Assembly (NCBI GenBank): GCA_045837725.1
Contig: JBEWZL010000043.1
Span: 124,001-188,000, forward strand
Origin: Vermamoeba vermiformis
Lineage: Eukaryota
DNA: 64,000 bases
Reading direction: 5' to 3'
Shown here: positions 16,585 to 57,200 of the stretch, in pieces
Layout of the letters: every line of letters starts with the position of its first letter
Numbering within the stretch: the stretch's first letter is position 1
The notes under the pieces: model-generated
Told to the model about the DNA's origin: nothing
The model's input: the letters and a program-made list of their open reading frames with translations, nothing else
The model's database searches: none
Translations under genes and position numbers: made by a program

Positions 16585-17369
16585 TCGCAGATCTGACTGG
16601 TGAGCAAATCCAATGCAATTTTATTGTACATTACTACTTGACCGTATAAATTGTCCACAAACGAATAAAATGAAGATATATAATACAATGTAAAAGAGAC
16701 CATACGGTGTCTGAGTTGGCTTGTTAATAGCGTACTGTTGTGGATCCTAAAAAACAATTATTAGTTCCCGCGCTTTTTTGAAGCCCCAGTTTGAATATTA
16801 ATATTAGTAGTACATAAATAGTATTGAAATAAACCGAAGGACGGAGTAAATTGCACGAATAAGGTTAAATGAGACAGATGTGTTTCTAATTATTAAATCA
16901 ATTTAGGCAATTTTGCAATCCAATTTAAATAATTCTTGTGCGTTTTTTATGGCCTAATGTGATATTATTTGAATTTATTTATTTTTTTACCTTTATAGCG
17001 ACTTTTTTGAACGAAGATAATGACCACGCATTTGGATAAACAAATTTGTCCGCCCAAGCTTCATTTCCTCGACTAATGTCCTATATTATTATTATTATAA
17101 CAAGTACAGTTGAGAAGCGCTAGTGTTTAATATTTTGGTGTCAGATCCGCTTACTCTATCGGGCTCGTATTCTCTGGGTACTTTTAAATTCATTCTTACT
17201 TATTTCGTTATTTGTTACGTGAGTACGAACGGCAATCACATTAAAGCCAAAGCTAACTTAATTTCACTGAACCAAGGGCCTGAACCAACCACGCACCAGC
17301 ACATGAAAGTTACCACTTGATTAATTAAAAATATTTACTGTGTAGCGTATAGAACAAGTCAAAGCAAGA

Positions 17370-18746
17370 ATGAGTCTATTAGAGGCAATCACCGCAAAAA
17401 AATCGAATCTAAAGATCACTGAAACGAAAGAGCGAGTGTTTGATCTCGCGCATATGATCAATAAAGATGGTAAGTAATTAGTTTAATTTTAAAGAATTAA
17501 TTTGGGCTTAGTTATTACGGTAGTTATTAAGTTCTTGAATAAATTCTTGCGTAGATTTTTTTACGATTCAGTAGAGGCTACACAACTCATCAATTATTTA
17601 CAGTAGTGATCGTTATGGGTAATTCACCAGGCAAAAGAGGATTGCGAATTTTGTGCTTTGGTAAGGCAAATTAGCTCGCCCATTACACCACATCTGGCCA
17701 CAAAATTAATCAAAATCATCATTACTCCTTAAAATATTAAGAATATTATTAATGTTTTATTTCAGTATTGAAATTAATTTTATTTTTCTTAGGCGACAGT
17801 TTAACGTGGGGCTACATAGGTCCTTATGGCGTAGACCAGCATCCTTACGCCAATAAATTGGCCGAATTAATTAAAAATGATTTTGCAGAGTATCCTTCAA
17901 TAGAGGTACGACTAAAATCGAATTCTGTGTTGCGGATTGGAATTTGAAAATTTAGATCTCGCATAATATGCTTCCATTTCGATAATCTATCGCTGATATA
18001 GTATGTAGATTATAGCAAAGGGTGTTAATGGCGAAAGAACGCAAAAAATGGCCGACAGGCTTGCAGAAGAATTGAAAAAAGATTCAGATTTTGACGCGAT
18101 TATTCTATTAGGAGGTAAACCCATCATTGCAATAATGAATATGTATACGTTATAATAATCGCTTAAATATTACTTAATTTTCGAGTTCATCAAGACAAAA
18201 CCGGATTTGAATTATCTCGATCTCGCTTTCAACTTCGACTTACTTGATATTATCGAATATTATAGGCACTAATGATGTAGGCGATAAAACACCCGAAAAA
18301 ACAATTGAGAATTTGAAGAATATGCAATCAACTGCGACCAAATATAAGATCGACTTTTTCATCGGAACTTTGCCGCCAGCGAGTACGTAATTAGCCAGTA
18401 TAATTAGCAAAACACATATTAATATCTACGTTTATCTATTTTTACAGAAGCAGATGATATCGATTGGGTACTCGAAGTAAAAACAAAGATCAACGACGGG
18501 ATCAAGTAAGCTTTCTTATCGTTCGAATATTTATCCAAAAATTAACAAGAATGTAGGACGTTAGTGCCTGAGAGCCATTTAAACGACTTTGCGAATGAAC
18601 TACTGATGCACGATCTGTCGGATGAAGAACGAGACAAGTTATGGAGCGACCATTTGCATCTAACAGCAGCCGGATACGATCTCATGGCGGAGATTATTTA
18701 TAAGAAACTTAAAGTTGTGTTACAAGAGCACAAAATACAAAAATAG
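17370..18746 (+). CDS. SGNH/GDSL hydrolase with an N-terminal WH2/thymosin-like peptide; multi-exon
   Basis: Spliced blocks ILCFGDSLTWG, KGVNGERT, ILLGGTND and SDHLHLTAAGY are SGNH blocks I, II, III and V. Exon 1 encodes MSLLEAITAKKSNLKITETKER. Confidence 0.88.
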
Positions 18747-18826
18747 ATCATTGAAAAGTTATTGATCATTATTCTTTAAGAACTGAATCAGTTGAAGGTC
18801 AGGACGAATTGACAACTTTCAGCAAA

Positions 18827-21321
18827 TCACTCGTCAATGTGTTTTTCATGAGCAATTTTGTTGTCATTTGCATTGTTGTTAAGAGCAAACTTTTGCAGCT
18901 GCTTGTTCTCAAGTAGGAGATCTAAAACTTGTGGTTCTTTGATCATGTACTGATAGCAATATCGGTGCTTGCCCTCTGAGAAGAGATGGTTAATGCTGAT
19001 TTTAATCTAAAATAATTGAGATTGAAACACTTACCATTATCAGTTTTCTCAAAGAAGAAAAATCCAGTATCATCTGGCTCAAAACCAAATCGTTTATGAA
19101 AAGCCTTGGGATCCCATGTGAAGTTAGAATTCTTAATGCTGCTGACCATTACATTGGTAATGTGAAGCAGTACTGTTAACAGCAAAATTAGTTCTGTTAT
19201 AAAGCACAGATTCTAACATACTCAGATGAGCTTGAGAATTGTTGCCAGTGCTTGTCATAGATTCCAGTCTCTCATCAATGAAGTCTTTGATCTCACTTTG
19301 TAACATATCCAATGATTCATTGAGAAGCTTTGACATGTTAACTTTTGTACTGCAGTCTCTTGCTTGCTGAAACATAATTCCAATTACTCTCACAACGTAT
19401 CTAAGTCTCCCTTGGAGAAGTTTTGCAGCGTTCTCTTTCACTTCATTGTCTATATCTGACAGATCAAAATATTTTTCCAGAATAGCAAGTGATTCTGTTG
19501 ACTTCACATAGGGAAATGTGTTGATGGCTGATGTTTCAAGGTCAAACCAGTTGTTGCCTTTTGCACCTCCATGTTGTGTGCGACTTGAAAAGTCTATCTT
19601 CTTTTTGCCAGCCACAACAACACTACATTTGGCAGAAGGAAGGGCATCCAACACCATTATCTTCAACAGGTCTCTCTTTGAAGTACTGTGAATTCTGTAA
19701 GATTATGCTTCAATTCATAATCAAGCTGCTTACTCATTGCCACAAGATACATTTTGAATTATTTGGGCTTCATCAACTCCAAACCAAACAAAACCTAATT
19801 CCCCAACAGTTTCTCTAATCAAGTATGTCAAGTTGGCTAATAATGTTGGGTTATCCCCAAAGTGAGAGTCTCTGAAACAAAAAAAATCAGTCCTGGGACA
19901 ACAGAATGTTGGTTACACTTACATGCATAGTGCAAATTCATGTTGAATTTTGTTAATTGTTCTCATTCCTTCAGTGTTGCACCAAAATAGCCATTCAGCT
20001 GGAGTTAATTTTGACTTCAAATGTTTCAACAATCTAAGTCTAGCCAGCCAGAATGCTTGAGCAAGAATAGTGCAGTACTGTGCCGAATGTTGGAAGGATT
20101 TGATGCAATGCCTAAACAATTGGAAGGCCTCATCAAGCTGTTAATGGTTTGGTTAGTGTTCAAGCACAAAGCAATTTGGATGTTTAACTTAAATCAACTT
20201 ACATAATCACCTTTTGCCCTGCCCTCTTCATTCTCACCTTGAATATAAATCAGATATGCATTGTGCCCAATTGCATTCAAAATTGTGCCTGGACAAAGCT
20301 GAGTGAGGATCAATTGGATGGAGAAAATATTACCTGTTTTTCCTGCACCTGACATAGCTCTTAATGTATAAATGTGGTAACCAGGTTTTTTGCTTTGTGA
20401 TTCCATAAATTTGTAAACTGGATCATCAACAGATCTTGGCATGAAACGGATGTCAGCATGCTTGTCCATAAGAGGGTTGAAGAAGATAGACTGCTTTATA
20501 TGTTCTCCAAAAATTGTTTTGAGCTCTTCCATACGTTCTGCTTCTGCTTGCTTAAAGTCAGGAAGATTTAAGTCAGAAATACATTTTTTCTCAATGCCTT
20601 CCAACTCCTGCTTCAGTATTGCAAAGTAGTCTGAGCAATATTAGTTAAGATCATGTTACTCATTAGATTTTGATAGTGCAACATACCTAGTTTAGGTCTT
20701 TTGGCCACTTGATCCACTTTGTCACTAAGCCCAATATCATCAGCGAGGTTATCTTCTCTTTTTCGTTTTTTTGAAGTTTCAGGCTTTTCAGTTGCTAAAT
20801 AGAACTTGTATTAGGATTGATTTTGCAAAAATTTTTGTTGAAGCCAACTTTCAACAACAATTTGTTGATTGTTAGCAATAAGCCATCTATCACATACCTG
20901 GTTCTGCTTGAGACGTCAGTTTTCCAATCCCCGTCCACAACCTTATCACTGAACCAAAAGGTAAGTGAAGAGCCGTGGCTAGGTCTTGATGATCATCAAT
21001 GTAGAGCAATAAACTGCCGTTAATCTTTGCACTTTTCAGGGCAGCCTGGTCCTGCTCGTTGAAGTTCAACTCTTTGCGCGCCCAATCCGCCACTTCTTCA
21101 ATTGTCCACGCTTTGGGCGGCTTATCTTTAAGATTTGGATTAATTAATTGTTTCGATGTTGTATTTAATAGTTATAATGTTAATCGTCGCGAATATTTAC
21201 GATGGATTGGTTTTTGCAGATTTTAAAAGTTTTCGCGCGTACAGTTATATTTTACAAATTGTAATTCAATACAATTTTACAAATTATTACCTTCAAAAGA
21301 ACTTCTCGTATTATTCCCCAT
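18827..21321 (-). CDS. SAM domain + Crinkler-type P-loop NTPase, apparently lacking the usual C-terminal effector domain
   Basis: Exon 1 MGNNTRSSFE; SAM-like AWTIEEVADWA...KINGSLLL...LHLPFG; KKRKR...KRPKL; Walker A AMSGAGKT; LARLRLL...LTPAEWL; Walker B GVDEAQ; LQGRLRY; KEPQV; stop at 18827-18829. The apparent frameshifts resolve as GT-AG introns. Confidence 0.7.
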
Positions 21322-21618
21322 GTTCTCTTGGCGTTAGTTTCTAGGATTAATTTAGCGGATATCCGCTGGAATGAAGAGATCGCTGTTTTCGATTATTAGG
21401 ACTGAGCCACGACTGCTTAAAAGCTTACTTACGTATAAAACGAAGGTGTTGCTTTGCATCAAGCGTAAGTAAACTAAGCTGCGTTCAAAATTGGGCTACC
21501 AAGGATTTTCTTGAACCCGGTTATTTCCTGGCACGAACAAAAACCATGGCCTGGATTGTTTGAGCTTTTAAAGGATTATAATTAGGTAAAAATATGGTTT
21601 ATTTACCTTACAGGCTTT

Positions 21619-22938
21619 TTAGAGTGAATGAATAGGAGCGTCGAAATTGATCTCGGGACCAACAGGAACAATGCCAGTCGGATTGATAGACTTTTGCGAA
21701 CCATAATAACCGGACTTAATATGCTCCATATTTACAGTGCGCTTAATCTCAGGCATTTGATAGAGCTCGCGAGTGAAGCGCCAGAGATTGGGGTAGTCAA
21801 CTAATCTCTTTTTGTTCGTCTTGAAATGACCTAGAATACGAAAAAAATATTACTACATGAGTCAATAATATAATATAACATTACGATTAGGAAAAATAAG
21901 TGGCACTACAGTTCAAAGTTTCGTATCCAGATTCGGATCGAAATTCAATTTTAGTTAATCGCAAGTTTTCGTAAATTTAATTCAGCGTCAATATGTATAC
22001 GTACTATAATATACGGGATCGAAGCGAAGCAAAGTCGTCCACAAACGAACGTCAGCAAGGGTAAGTTTGTCACCGGTCAAGAATCTATTCTTGGACAAAA
22101 TGTCCTCAGCACGGTCCAATGACTCGAATAAAATATAATAACTCTTTTCATAGGCAGCTTGAGTAGTTGCAAATCTATTATTCAATCAGTTTTCTTGGAT
22201 TCAAATCCGGATTTGAATTTAAAATTCAAAGTCATCGCTTACCCGCACTTATAGACAGCGTTATTAATTCCATCGTAAATCCATGCATTCAATTCTTCGA
22301 TTTTTTGCTGCAATTCTTCAGGGTACAAATCTAATTCAGGGTGCTTGGCAAATTGATTGAATTCTTTGTTCAACATTACTATAATCTCTGCGGACTCATT
22401 ATTGACGATCTTTTTGGTCTATATATGTGGTTAATAATCAATGGCATATTAATAGACTGTTACGTACTTGTTTGTCGTATAAAACAGGAACAGTGTAACG
22501 GCCTTCGTAATTCGGATCTGATTGCTTGTACACCTCAGAAATGAAGTTAAAATTGTTGACGCGATCATTACTGGTTGTCAATTTGAAAGGCCTCGAGGAT
22601 GTGATTACGGTGGATGTGGTTGACCCTGGCTTGGGTCCTGAAGGCTGGAATAACGTACCCAAGGGCAAGCATAAGAGACGTACAAGTGGTATCTGTTAGC
22701 CTCAGCTTTAAATCCGCTACTTCCATCAGCAGTAACTTTGTTTCGGAAAGCAGAAGCTAAACAAAATGTTGAATTAATAAATATTTGAATTTATTGCAGC
22801 AGAGTAAAATCTTCGTGTCAAATCCGAGTAAAACGCGCAGGCAAGCAATTTATTCATATTCTTACCTTTGCGCACAAACTCTCCATCCTTATTGTTATGT
22901 TGGGTCACATCGACGCCTTGTTTATTGTCGGCAGACAT
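21619..22938 (-). pseudogene. Glutathionyl-hydroquinone reductase (Xi-class GST, YqjG/ECM4-like); disrupted as assembled by an internal inversion
   Basis: [49 protein letters not shown] and INPTGIVPVGP are all present. The segment expected after CPW lies on the opposite strand (22562-22650). The family call is secure; pseudogene status is not. Confidence 0.75.
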
Positions 22939-23559
22939 ATTTTTCAATAAAGCAAACGCAGATTCGAGCTAGAACTTGTTTTGTTTGATTTTGTCGCGGT
23001 GAATGCTCGTGCAGCTTGTCTTAAAAACTATTTAAAATTGTTTTCAACATTTGGCAATATTTATGGGCGTAAAATAACCTTCCACAAGTTTCTGGAAGAT
23101 CTTTTTCACCTTTCCCGGTCTTCCCGGCGATTTCCGGAAGGTTATTGCGTAATTAATATATTACGGACACTTGCTCCGATAATTTAAAGCCTTTTTTGGA
23201 TTAGATCTACCCACAGTAATTTAATTAATTTCTTGCAGATTGTTAGAGCCCGCGACACGCATCTGACTCAAGCATGCAGGATTCAATTAAAATGCCATTA
23301 AAAGTACAATTCTACTTACTTGTATCGTGCAGTTGTGGTGTTTGATGCTTTGTTACTGATCATTCACAGTTTTTCTTGCCCGCCTTTTTCAACAACACAG
23401 ATGCAACAACTTTGTTTAATTTCACCCTGGTATAGATAAGATCTATTAATGCCACCCTTTTCGCGTGGCGAACCTAACGTCAAACCAAATTACTTCGATC
23501 GACAACCTGGCCAGATTTGATCCGAAACTCTTCGGTGTGAATCAAGTAAGAGTGAAAAA

Positions 23560-54273: not shown

Positions 54274-57200
54274 CTATCGTCTGGCTACAGGGACATCCAG
54301 TGAGATTGGAGCAGCAACTGGAACGTCGACAGGGACTGTCACTGTGACGGGAACATCAACAGGAGCGCTGGTTTGGGTGACTGGTGCATCAACTGGGACT
54401 TGAGTGGCCACGGGGACGGTGACGGGAACGTCAACAGGAGCGCTGGTTTGAGTGACTGGAACGTCAACAGGAGCGCTGGTTTGAGTGACTGGAATGTCAA
54501 CAGGGACTGTCACTGTGACAGGAACATCAACAGGAGCGCTGGTTTGAGTGACTGGTGCATCGACTGGGACTTGAGTAGCTACGGGGACAGTGACGGGAAC
54601 ATCAACAGGAGCGCTGGCTTGAGTGACTGGAGCGTCAACAGGAGCGCTAGCTTGAGCGATTGGTGCATCAACCGGGACTTGAGTAGCTACGGGGACGGTG
54701 ACAGGAACGTCAACAGGAGCGCTGGTTTGAGTGACTGGAGCGTCAACAGGAGGGGGAATATCGGAGCGTAGCTTGGGTGATCGGTGCGTCAACTGGGACT
54801 TGAGTGGCCACGGGGACGGTGACAGGAACGTCAACAGGAGCGCTGGCTTGATTGACTGGAGCATCTACAGGAACTTGAGTAGCTACGGGGACGGTGACGG
54901 GAACATCAACAGGAGCGCTGGCTTGAGTGACTGGAACGTCAACAGGGACTGTCACTGTGACAGGAACATCAACAGGAGCGCTGGCTTGATTGACTGGAGC
55001 GTCAACTGGGACTTGAGTAGCTACCGGTTCAGAGACTGGAGCTGTGACAGGGACTTGAACAGTTACAGGAGGTGTCACGGGTACATCTACTGGAGCTGAG
55101 ACAGGAGCAGTAACAGGCACTGCGACGGGGTCAGCAACAGGCGCGGAGACTGGAATAGCAACAGGAGTTTGAACAGGCTCTGCAACAGGAACAGTGACAG
55201 GGACGTCAACTGGAGCTGCAACAGGGACAGCGACTGGTATCGAGACGGGTTCAGCAACAGGGGCGGCGACTGGGGGTGTCACAGGGACAGCGACAGGTAC
55301 GTCAACTGGCGCGGCTACAGGTACTGCAACAGGTGTGGCAACAGGAGCTGCAACTGGAACGGCTACTGGCACGCTAACGGGAACTGCAACTGGGACAGTG
55401 ACAGGAACGTCGACTGGTGCAGCTACGGGTACTGCAACGGGTGTGGCCACAGGAACTGCAACAGGTACAGTGACTGGAGCTTGAACGGGTGCTGCAACTG
55501 GGACAGTGACAGGAGGTGTCACAGGGACAGCAAGGGGGGCGACTGGGGGTGTAAGGGAAGACAGGTACGTCGACTGGGGCAGCTACGGGTACTGCAACAG
55601 GTGTGGCGACAGGAGCTGCAACTGGAACGGCTACTGGCACGTTAACTGGAGCTGCGACAGGAGTTGCAACAGGGGCCGCTACTGGCACTGCAACAGGTGT
55701 GGCGACAGGTGTGGCCACAGGAGTAGCAACGGGGGTTGCTACGGGTACTGCAACAGGTGTGGCGACAGGAGCTGCAACTGGAACGGCTACTGGCACGCTA
55801 ACTGGAACTGCAACAGGGACGGCGACAGGAGGAGTGACTGGAGCTGCCACAGGGACAGGTGGAGTCTGGCAGGCAAGAGGCACGCTCGATTGACTCCACA
55901 AAGTAGGAGTGTTGGCGCTGTTCTTCACAACAGTGATGACGACTCTATCACTCAAGTAGCAAGGAGCTACGGTCCACAAAGCGGGACTCAAGATGCTTGA
56001 AATAGATGTGAATCTTCCTGACAGACCATTGGCGGTAGAAGCGCGGATCGGAGAGAACCAGCTGAGATCTGGTTGAGTTTGTGCCGTGGATAACGAGTTC
56101 AGCGTCAAAGTTCCATTCAAAGCGAGTGCTAGAAAAGTGCAACGTGAGAACGGAATATTGCAGAAATAAACAATTGCGGGAATATCTTTTCATCTAAACG
56201 TCACTTACTTGAAAACGTCAACACATCATATCTTCCCGATCCGTCCGCAAGTGAATACTCAAAGTCGATCACAGTGTTACCAGCACTAGTTTGAGTGTAA
56301 GAGAAGGTGCGGGTGAAGTTAGCGACAGATCCGCGCACACCGAAGTACGCAGTTCCGCGGTTAACAAAGGAAGAGAGGACGGATACACCAGTGGCCGTGG
56401 CAGGGAAGGTCAATGAAGCACTTTCAGCAACAACCATCGTCGTAACGGTGGTGCTTGCGGTGGTAGAGACAGTGTAGTCACCAGAGGCGAATTGAAGAGT
56501 GCCGTTGCCACCGACAGGCGCGGAAAAGGTGTTGGATCCAGAGGCAACAAGACGCACGGTCGACAGGGGGCCCATGGTTGCACCGGTGAAAGTGGCACCT
56601 TAGTAAATTTAAATTAGTATTACTAAAGATAGTAAGCTCAGTGATGCAGAATCCAAATTTGATAAGTTGACAGGTGCAAAATTTCTGCGTGAATCGTGTG
56701 TTCCTCCGAAATTTCAATAAAAAAGGAAAAAACACACAAACACGCGCACCGATTAATTAAATGATTAGAGGCTTTATATGATAAAGATGCTTTGCCACAA
56801 CTAAGTGTAAGAGAAGTGCGACTCTCAGCCGAGTTCGGGCAAGAGAATCAATAAATAACTATCTAGGGTGAAGATCTGGTTATACCTGCAACCGTCACCG
56901 TGGCGTTAATCAAGTTGAAACTACCGGGGCCAGTTTGTTTGTCGAAAGAAAAGTTGCCATTGCGGAGGGTCAGCACGAACGTCGAGTTGCTAACACCCAA
57001 TTGGATGCTAGAGAAGGTCGCGGTACCAGGAACGAATTGTCTGTTCCAAGTCCAGCCGGTCGCACGGTCTAAAAATAAAACGGATTGTTAGAACGGCCGT
57101 TTTCGTTTAACGATAAAAATTGAATCCGAATCTGAATTCCATTTCATTTCCGGCAATAACTATTGACGTACCAGTCAAGATAGCGCTGACATTGTTGAAA

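Follow-up and report, generated by a model that had tools for sequence, protein, structure and literature searches.

We analysed a 64,000-nt stretch of contig JBEWZL010000043.1 from Vermamoeba vermiformis (referred to below as the window, meaning the whole of this stretch), which carries on its minus strand an intact, intron-rich gene for a protein with a SAM-like head and a P-loop NTPase body. Most of this gene lies in a sharply bounded domain that has lost about nine tenths of its CG dinucleotides (CpG), in a window that is otherwise rich in them. A first-pass annotation had described the locus as a CpG-depleted, Crinkler-like NTPase body fused to a CpG-normal SAM head, and had offered either a history of targeted CpG methylation or a different origin of the body as an explanation. 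The evidence set out below points to CpG decay in place within a resident gene.

A CpG-poor domain over an NTPase gene

The limits of the domain were obtained from a two-rate change-point fit to the positions of CG dinucleotides, with the rest of the window serving as host background for the domain statistics (Table 1). Over its 2225 bp, the domain had a ratio of observed to expected (o/e) CpG of 0.16 and a GC content of 36.4%, compared to 1.15 and 41.1% in the remainder of the window, and 1.12 and 40.9% in the window as a whole (3005 CG). Among 573 other segments of 2225 bp in the 64 kb, the lowest CpG o/e was 0.75 (mean 1.17, standard deviation 0.16). The domain thus lay at z = -6.4. The lowest 1-kb value outside the locus was 0.59 (55001-56000). 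Up to position 18688 a CG was found about once per 21 bp, a spacing that resumed from 20914. The 12 CpG left in between are at 18805, 18832, 18963, 19091, 19396, 19429, 19581, 20084, 20447, 20534, 20744, and 20764. When all CG-free gaps in the window were ranked by length, the top four (503, 363, 305, and 210 bp) all lay inside the locus. The hand counts made at first pass, 9 CG in 19021-20880 and 10 CG in 20881-21120, proved exact, with recomputed o/e values of 0.14 (GC 36.8%) and 0.72, respectively. The richness of the body in TG and CA was likewise borne out; inside the locus, TG o/e was 1.45 and CA o/e was 1.48, compared to 1.06 each outside, while CG o/e was 0.14 compared to 1.15.

Both edges of the domain were resolved narrowly; the interval of 2 log-likelihood units (lnL) was 18678-18845 for the left edge and 20865-20973 for the right. 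The right-hand interval includes 20898, the last (3') position of the SAM exon, and the exon 2/intron 2 junction (20897/20898), in keeping with the earlier placement of the boundary near the SAM/NTPase junction. On the other side, the depletion turned out to be wider than had been described. It reaches beyond the gene body into the 3' untranslated region (UTR)/intergenic stretch and takes in the last 58 nt of the coding sequence of the convergent neighbour. The CpG-normal 5' part begins in the upstream intergenic DNA, takes in exon 1 and the CpG-dense intron 1, and covers almost the whole SAM exon.

The missing CpG were matched by a gain of the dinucleotides into which they decay. By mass balance, the domain was short of ~73 CG and held ~102 surplus TG+CA, and reverting ~90 TG/CA to CG gave a GC content of 40.4%, a CpG o/e of 1.12, and a TG+CA o/e of 1.06, compared to 41.1%, 1.15, and 1.06 for the host. 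Introns 2 to 9 (467 nt) contained 0 CG where 13.3 were expected (p 1.7e-6), and the body exons contained 11 CG where 66 were expected. Because these introns are CG-free as well, the depletion is not a coding effect.

We also compared codon choice in the body with that in 13 long open reading frames (ORFs) elsewhere in the window, taken as the host reference. Where the next base was not G, two-fold C/T-ending codons were used in the body much as in the host (59 C : 54 T, or 0.52, compared to 216 : 246, or 0.47). Where the next base was G, the C-ending forms had almost vanished from the body (3 : 42, or 0.07, compared to 129 : 88, or 0.59). NCG codons fell from 20% in the host (121/613) to 1% in the body (1/97), with a rise in NCA, and GC at third codon positions was 0.488 in the head, 0.487 in the host, and 0.355 in the body. 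The CpG that remain in the body sat preferentially at positions 1-2 of Arg codons (6/11, compared to 85/458, or 19%, in host ORFs; Fisher p 0.009). Deamination of 5-methylcytosine (5mC) leads to CpG-specific, strand-symmetric C-to-T change. The combination found here, a deficit specific to CpG and a gain of TpG and CpA, extends equally to introns, to synonymous sites, and to the 3' flank. It is the footprint of such deamination and agrees with the CpG erosion that the first-pass annotation had suspected.

No tandem repeats were found in 17000-23000, and the search for direct, inverted, or terminal repeats flanking the domain returned only short pairs at chance level. A second candidate case of low CpG, at 54.3-56.2 kb, was rejected. 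There, 54274-56189 (minus strand) encodes a long Pro/Val-rich repeat protein with VPVAxPV... units and nested tandem repeats of 12-171 nt (GC 58%), and its CpG o/e of ~0.6 and TG/CA o/e of ~1.55 arise from the composition of the repeats.

Gene structure, relatives and alleles

The gene model was built by hand from reading frames, splice signals, and homology, and was checked by script, without support from RNA reads. Its nine GT-AG introns measure 165, 103, 56, 45, 65, 51, 39, 49, and 59 nt. The exon order and the last exon were backed by tblastn with a relative from Arcella (P0002, residues 32-553). Exon 2 matched SAM_Ste50p at 21.8 bits (cut-off 21; E 2.2e-4), a marginal score that passes the gathering threshold; SAM_2 (E 0.013) and SAM_PNT stayed under their cut-offs, and the best solved chain was the SAM domain of SHANK2 (E 0.1). 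The KKRKRE in exon 3, judged by eye, looks like a putative nuclear localisation signal. Assignment of the body to the P-loop NTPases follows from the Walker A and Walker B motifs in the translation, both conserved among the relatives.

Table 1. Coordinates of the CpG-poor domain and of the features of the NTPase gene, in positions of the window.
Feature	Coordinates	Strand	Content or evidence
CpG-poor domain	18689..20913	.	12 CG against ~85 expected; TG+CA excess ~102; change-point fit 55.7 log-likelihood units above the no-domain model
CpG-normal 5' part	20914..21618	-	31 CG, o/e 1.2
Coding region	18827..21321	-	ATG at 21321, stop at 18827; 10 exons, 620-aa open frame
Exons 1-5	21321-21291, 21125-20898, 20794-20687, 20630-20334, 20288-20203	-	
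Exons 6-10	20137-19923, 19871-19734, 19694-19222, 19172-19035, 18975-18827	-	
SAM-like head, exon 2	20898..21125	-	Pfam SAM_Ste50p
Charged linker with KKRKRE, exon 3	20687..20794	-	Translation
Family N-terminal motif FNPL..DIRFM..DPVY and Walker A SGAGKTG	20334..20630 (Walker A ~20334-20352)	-	Alignment, HMMER hits P0001-P0013
In-frame 45-nt intron	20289..20333	-	Directly after Walker A; position common to relatives
Walker B region VWFGVDEAQ	19763..19789	-	Aligns with VWYAVDEAQ of P0002
Helical region past the NTPase core, exons 8-10	18827..19694	-	LQGRLRYV and KEPQ motifs; tblastn with P0002

Relatives of the NTPase were sought with HMMER, using the Walker A exon as query in an exhaustive search of 1.84 billion representatives. 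This gave 13 matches, of which 11 were true relatives; the other two (P0008 and P0012) were rejected as spurious bacterial Ig-repeat proteins. The 11 comprise fragments from metagenome contigs, one fragment from a Vermamoeba vermiformis transcriptome, and the 831-aa full-length protein P0002 from an Arcella intermedia transcriptome, with which the window protein aligns over residues 32-553. Word-based homologue searches among longer proteins, using exon 4 and exon 7, gave no matches, 13 pattern matches in viral contigs yielded 0 confirmed relatives, and no second copy of the NTPase gene was found within the 64-kb window. Searches of the family against Pfam, NCBIfam, and PADLOC returned nothing beyond a weak, sub-cut-off match of P0002 to AAA_22 (E 0.0056), and Rfam gave 0 matches. 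By its sequence relatives in Arcella and Vermamoeba, the gene family is amoebozoan. SMC4 of the window had its best match in a metagenome protein (58%), followed by Amoeba proteus (46%) and other Amoebozoa, which places the window in an amoebozoan, probably a tubulinean. DNA of the locus was present at low depth in a water metagenome. A metagenomic locus of one other species (L001-L003) showed no synteny with the window.

Traces of the intron that follows Walker A were seen at the same site in relatives, as read-through inserts in P0001 and P0011 and as a stop after GAGKTGKNS in L001-L003. Since its position is shared with relatives, the gene structure appears native to the lineage. At 45 nt it is one of the two shortest introns of the gene, the other being the 39-nt intron at 19695-19733; as it is in frame and free of stops, gene callers could read through it, as the metagenome calls of relatives do. 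The window protein ends at the point corresponding to residue 553 of P0002, while full-length relatives run ~280 aa further (P0002 and L001/L002 extend to about P0002 residue 803). With the stop codon of the convergent neighbour just 80 bp away, the C-terminal domain of the family is absent from the window copy. The positions concerned are 18827-18975 in the window and 2397-3346 in L001.

The first-pass label 'Crinkler-like' has one language-model lead in its favour. The window protein resembles Crinkler (CR)-type proteins in its modular N-terminal head and P-loop NTPase, to which full-length relatives add a further C-terminal domain (PMC5289972). It differs in that the head is SAM-like where the CR header is ubiquitin-like (Ubl), and in that the window copy lacks the C-terminal domain. 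Pfam scans found the Ubl Crinkler header PF20147 in none of the exons or relatives and gave no match for the C-terminal domain of the relatives, and no curated family matched. As the window protein stops at P0002 residue 553, no helix-turn-helix (HTH) plus restriction endonuclease (REase), nor any other nuclease-type or toxin domain, was found C-terminal to the NTPase. An Atlas feature search with P0002, a language-model lead, included a Crinkler-named cluster among its matches (4/30 matches; score 0.93, 200/256 features) in which 45% of the members have PF20147; unnamed basidiomycete clusters scored higher, at 0.97-0.98. In the published description, CR proteins combine header, NTPase, HTH, and REase, swap headers, and occur also in free-living eukaryotes; because other, alpha-helical headers exist besides Ubl, a missing PF20147 does not exclude a CR protein (PMC5289972). 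The NTPase body is, on its sequence, possibly CR-type, and we have not filed it as a member. A different label attaches to two short family fragments in the P0007 cluster (P0018 and P0019), which one source names 'CRISPR/Cas system-associated endonuclease/helicase Cas3'; one fragment of this group lies on a 606-kb metagenome contig, presumably amoebal, and the name looks like an annotation error.

The locus appears to be heterozygous in DNA sequencing run X1. Over the gene body, the X1 assembly split in two, each contig having about half the depth of the flank (72 and 82); one had 45 differences from the window in 535 bp (20234-20768) and the other 2 in 434 bp. In the 5' flank (20834-22200) the haplotypes were collapsed into a single contig at depth 141, with 4 differences in 1367 bp; the left flank was heterozygous as well. 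The locus looks highly polymorphic, which may reflect balancing or diversifying selection or relaxed constraint. For run X1, 40 of 144 differences were listed, and the allelic figures by type of change are drawn from those. Among the differences listed in the domain, 5 of the 7 T>C or A>G changes turn the site into a CpG on the second haplotype (null 0.265, p 0.017), so CpG/TpG polymorphism is present at the locus, and two of the CpG-creating differences are Gln/His in the window and Arg CGN in the other haplotype. The only coding indels listed were a -1/+1 pair three bases apart, which keeps the frame.

On the same strand upstream lies a GST gene (GST_C_2, E 2e-12), and the convergent gene downstream is weakly GDSL-lipase-like. 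The conserved neighbours SMC4, acyl-CoA dehydrogenase, and GST are CpG-normal. Despite a GC content of only 25%, intron 1 of the NTPase gene (21126-21290, minus strand) contains 8 CpG (o/e 3.3). They form two clusters, one with a CGCGCG run and one with a TCGCGACG run, and the intron may be a candidate promoter-proximal regulatory element. RNA runs X10 and X12, which bear the same species label as the DNA, contributed 2 and 6 reads to the 4.2 kb of 18000-22200, neighbouring genes counted in, and were uninformative on expression and splicing. Their reads were 90-99% alike to the window, all under 99% identity, even over the housekeeping-type neighbours, and diverged strains or cryptic species may be grouped under this one label.

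Weighing the explanations

We put the probability at roughly 60% that this is a resident gene whose CpG decayed in place, most likely through locus-specific 5mC. The gene would then be native to an amoebozoan (Tubulinea-like) genome, encoding a SAM-headed P-loop NTPase of a small amoebozoan family, and the DNA from ~400 bp past the start codon to just beyond the stop codon would long have been CpG-methylated in the replicating lineage. Deamination of 5mC would have converted roughly 90 CpG, about nine tenths of the CpG sites, to TpG or CpA, lowering GC from ~40% to 36% and leaving CpG mainly in Arg codons. The promoter, the first exon and the SAM exon, with intron 1 between these two, would have stayed unmethylated and retained their CpG, and the contrast between head and body would mark the boundary of methylation. 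To judge from the footprint, 5mC is the most likely cause; the mark would be, or would formerly have been, confined to this transcription unit, and promoter activity may have protected the 5' end. Locus-specific methylation in a CpG-rich genome, as proposed at first pass, seems the best reading of a CpG-specific footprint for which there is a published amoebozoan precedent (PMC12344493). The silencing of an effector family, also proposed there, would go beyond these data.

Several observations weigh against it. The share of AAG among Lys codons was 0.35 in the body compared to 0.54 in the host (p 0.027), and C-ending four-fold codons were fewer in the body than in the host; both changes lie outside what CpG decay predicts. 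The metagenomic relative L001-L003 is near-normal in CpG (0.64-1.26 per 500 bp), and the depletion is therefore a property of the window copy rather than a family trait. Among the allelic differences listed in body exons, 11 were non-synonymous and 5 synonymous, a ratio that suggests a weakly constrained or diversifying protein. The promoter side is CpG-normal, unlike the methylated genes of Acanthamoeba castellanii, in which promoter and body are methylated together. In addition, genome-wide CpG depletion across protists is reported to track 5mC poorly (PMC12695648).

A different origin of the body, the other option raised at first pass, fared poorly. Codon choice is host-like outside the context of C before G, the mass balance returns host composition, and the introns are short and host-like, one of them at a position common to amoebozoan relatives; among the viral contigs searched there were no relatives, and the domain has no flanking repeats. 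Agreement with host codons only outside that context is not what a foreign gene should show, and these data argue for CpG decay in place over foreign origin. They also bear on a fusion, in which the body became CpG-poor elsewhere (at another methylated locus, as a mobile copy, or in a donor amoeba) and was then joined, by exon shuffling or recombination, to a resident promoter and SAM exon. The 5' boundary interval does include the exon 2/intron 2 junction, with 0 CG in intron 2 and 8 in intron 1, and header swapping is described for CR-type proteins (PMC5289972). Neither the DNA upstream of the relative in L001-L003 nor the N-terminal extensions of P0006, P0007, P0009, and P0013 yielded a SAM-like sequence, a negative that comes from fragmentary metagenome gene calls. 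The collapse of the X1 haplotypes above 20834, next to 45 differences in 535 bp below it, would fit a join in intron 2, although this coincidence is weak because the left flank is heterozygous too. A promoter-proximal zone of ~400 bp that escapes the mark would explain the boundary equally well, and the CpG-poor 3' flank, with the last 58 nt of the neighbour, is more easily explained by a mark that spread than by the insertion of a block. With the host-like codons, composition, and introns counted against it as well, we regard a fusion as unlikely.

Processes other than the decay of 5mC at a single resident copy have to account for the same footprint. CpG-targeted mutation resembling repeat-induced point mutation (RIP) occurs in basidiomycete repeats, and a RIP-like genome-defence process confined to the body, which would have or have had near-identical paralogues, would fit the fact that the affected part is the part shared by the family, with the unique head spared. 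We know of no such process in Amoebozoa, however, and the X1 depths, 72 and 82 in the body and 141 in the flank, are what two alleles at one locus would give, rather than extra copies. The absence of a second copy from the 64-kb window and the depletion of the non-coding 3' flank also speak against it. Even if CR-type families are frequently multi-copy, as described (PMC5289972), a RIP-like origin seems improbable. Selective avoidance of CpG, e.g., to evade a silencing or restriction factor that reads CpG, or a local mutational bias that has nothing to do with methylation, would accord with the poor tracking of 5mC by CpG depletion at genome scale in protists (PMC12695648). It sits badly with the equal depletion of introns, 3' UTR, and synonymous sites, with the reciprocal gain of TpG and CpA, and with an effect that ends abruptly within one transcription unit. 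Moreover, CpG has survived best in the CGN codons for Arg, where avoidance should instead have favoured the available AGR, and we hold this account to be about as improbable as a RIP-like origin. The sharp contrast in composition with both flanks could also betray an assembly chimera or a contaminant segment. Yet contigs from two independent runs, X1 and X5, span the left boundary (X1 18537-19061, X5 18560-18725) and the right boundary (X1 20834-22200, X5 20758-20976), so that the chimeric join considered at first pass is unlikely; the gene is, in addition, spliced across the boundary into a single open frame with host-like codon use. We give such an artefact next to no weight.

A bolder form of the methylation reading would be that the locus carries a heritable, gene-sized 5mC domain with a spared promoter, acting as an epigenetic switch on a polymorphic CR-like NTPase in a tubulinean amoeba. 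The mark would then have outlasted the loss of ~90% of its CpG while both haplotypes hold the reading frame, and the protected promoter would resemble a CpG island. We consider this doubtful. If true, it would amount to promoter-spared methylation outside animals and plants, on an immune- or effector-like gene, instead of the terminal silencing of junk.

Comparison with known methylation systems

To our knowledge, the methylome of one amoebozoan species has been measured so far. The footprint described here, with an o/e of 0.16 against 1.15 and edges resolved to ~100 bp, would provide a concrete locus for 5mC targeting in a second, distant amoebozoan lineage. Should the mark be real, it would connect DNA methylation with a conflict-type NTPase family, and should 5mC be absent, the locus would reveal a CpG-specific mutational process of another cause.

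The footprint resembles gene-body methylation in animals and plants in its sparing of the promoter side, its depleted body with introns and synonymous sites alike, and its excess of TpG and CpA; this likeness concerns the footprint only. In animals, the low-CpG class is described as consisting of broadly expressed, conserved housekeeping genes (PMC12344493). The window gene, in contrast, is lineage-restricted, fast-evolving, and the sole such gene in the 64 kb, and neither its 11 relatives among the 1.84 billion representatives nor the 11:5 ratio of its listed allelic differences is that of a conserved target.

Closer parallels come from species with sparse methylation. In A. castellanii, whose genome is almost wholly unmethylated, 5mC is reported to be restricted to CpG, to average 1.3%, and to mark 381 mostly silent genes (2.4%), in which it extends across both promoter and body, along with young retrotransposons and insertions of giant viruses (Sarre et al. 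2025, PMC12344493). A single gene with this footprint in CpG-rich amoebozoan surroundings resembles this sparse, CpG-only marking, with the differences that methylation was measured there and is read from sequence decay here, and that promoter and body of silent genes are covered there, whereas the footprint here spares the promoter side (PMC12344493). Compared to the virus-derived targets of A. castellanii, the window gene is non-viral (0 relatives confirmed in viral contigs), intact, and interrupted by nine introns (PMC12344493). If the mark is real, the locus would depart from the virus- and transposon-centred picture drawn from Acanthamoeba in three respects, namely its spared promoter, its intact gene with many introns, and its strongly diverged alleles. 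The machinery may be at hand, as Table S1 of the same study gives 8 DNMT1 matches for Amoeba proteus, 3 for Arcella intermedia, and 2 for Vermamoeba vermiformis (PMC12344493), the lineages closest to the window and to the NTPase family. In the fungus Rhizophagus irregularis, a different kingdom in which methylation was likewise measured, CpG methylation is reported to be bimodal, and a few crinkler-domain genes, making up 0.4% of the class, are among the highly methylated ones (Dallaire et al. 2021, PMC8647823). Given these precedents in A. castellanii and Rhizophagus and the DNMT1 of Tubulinea, as far as the published accounts go, one methylated gene surrounded by unmethylated amoebozoan DNA would be of a known kind.

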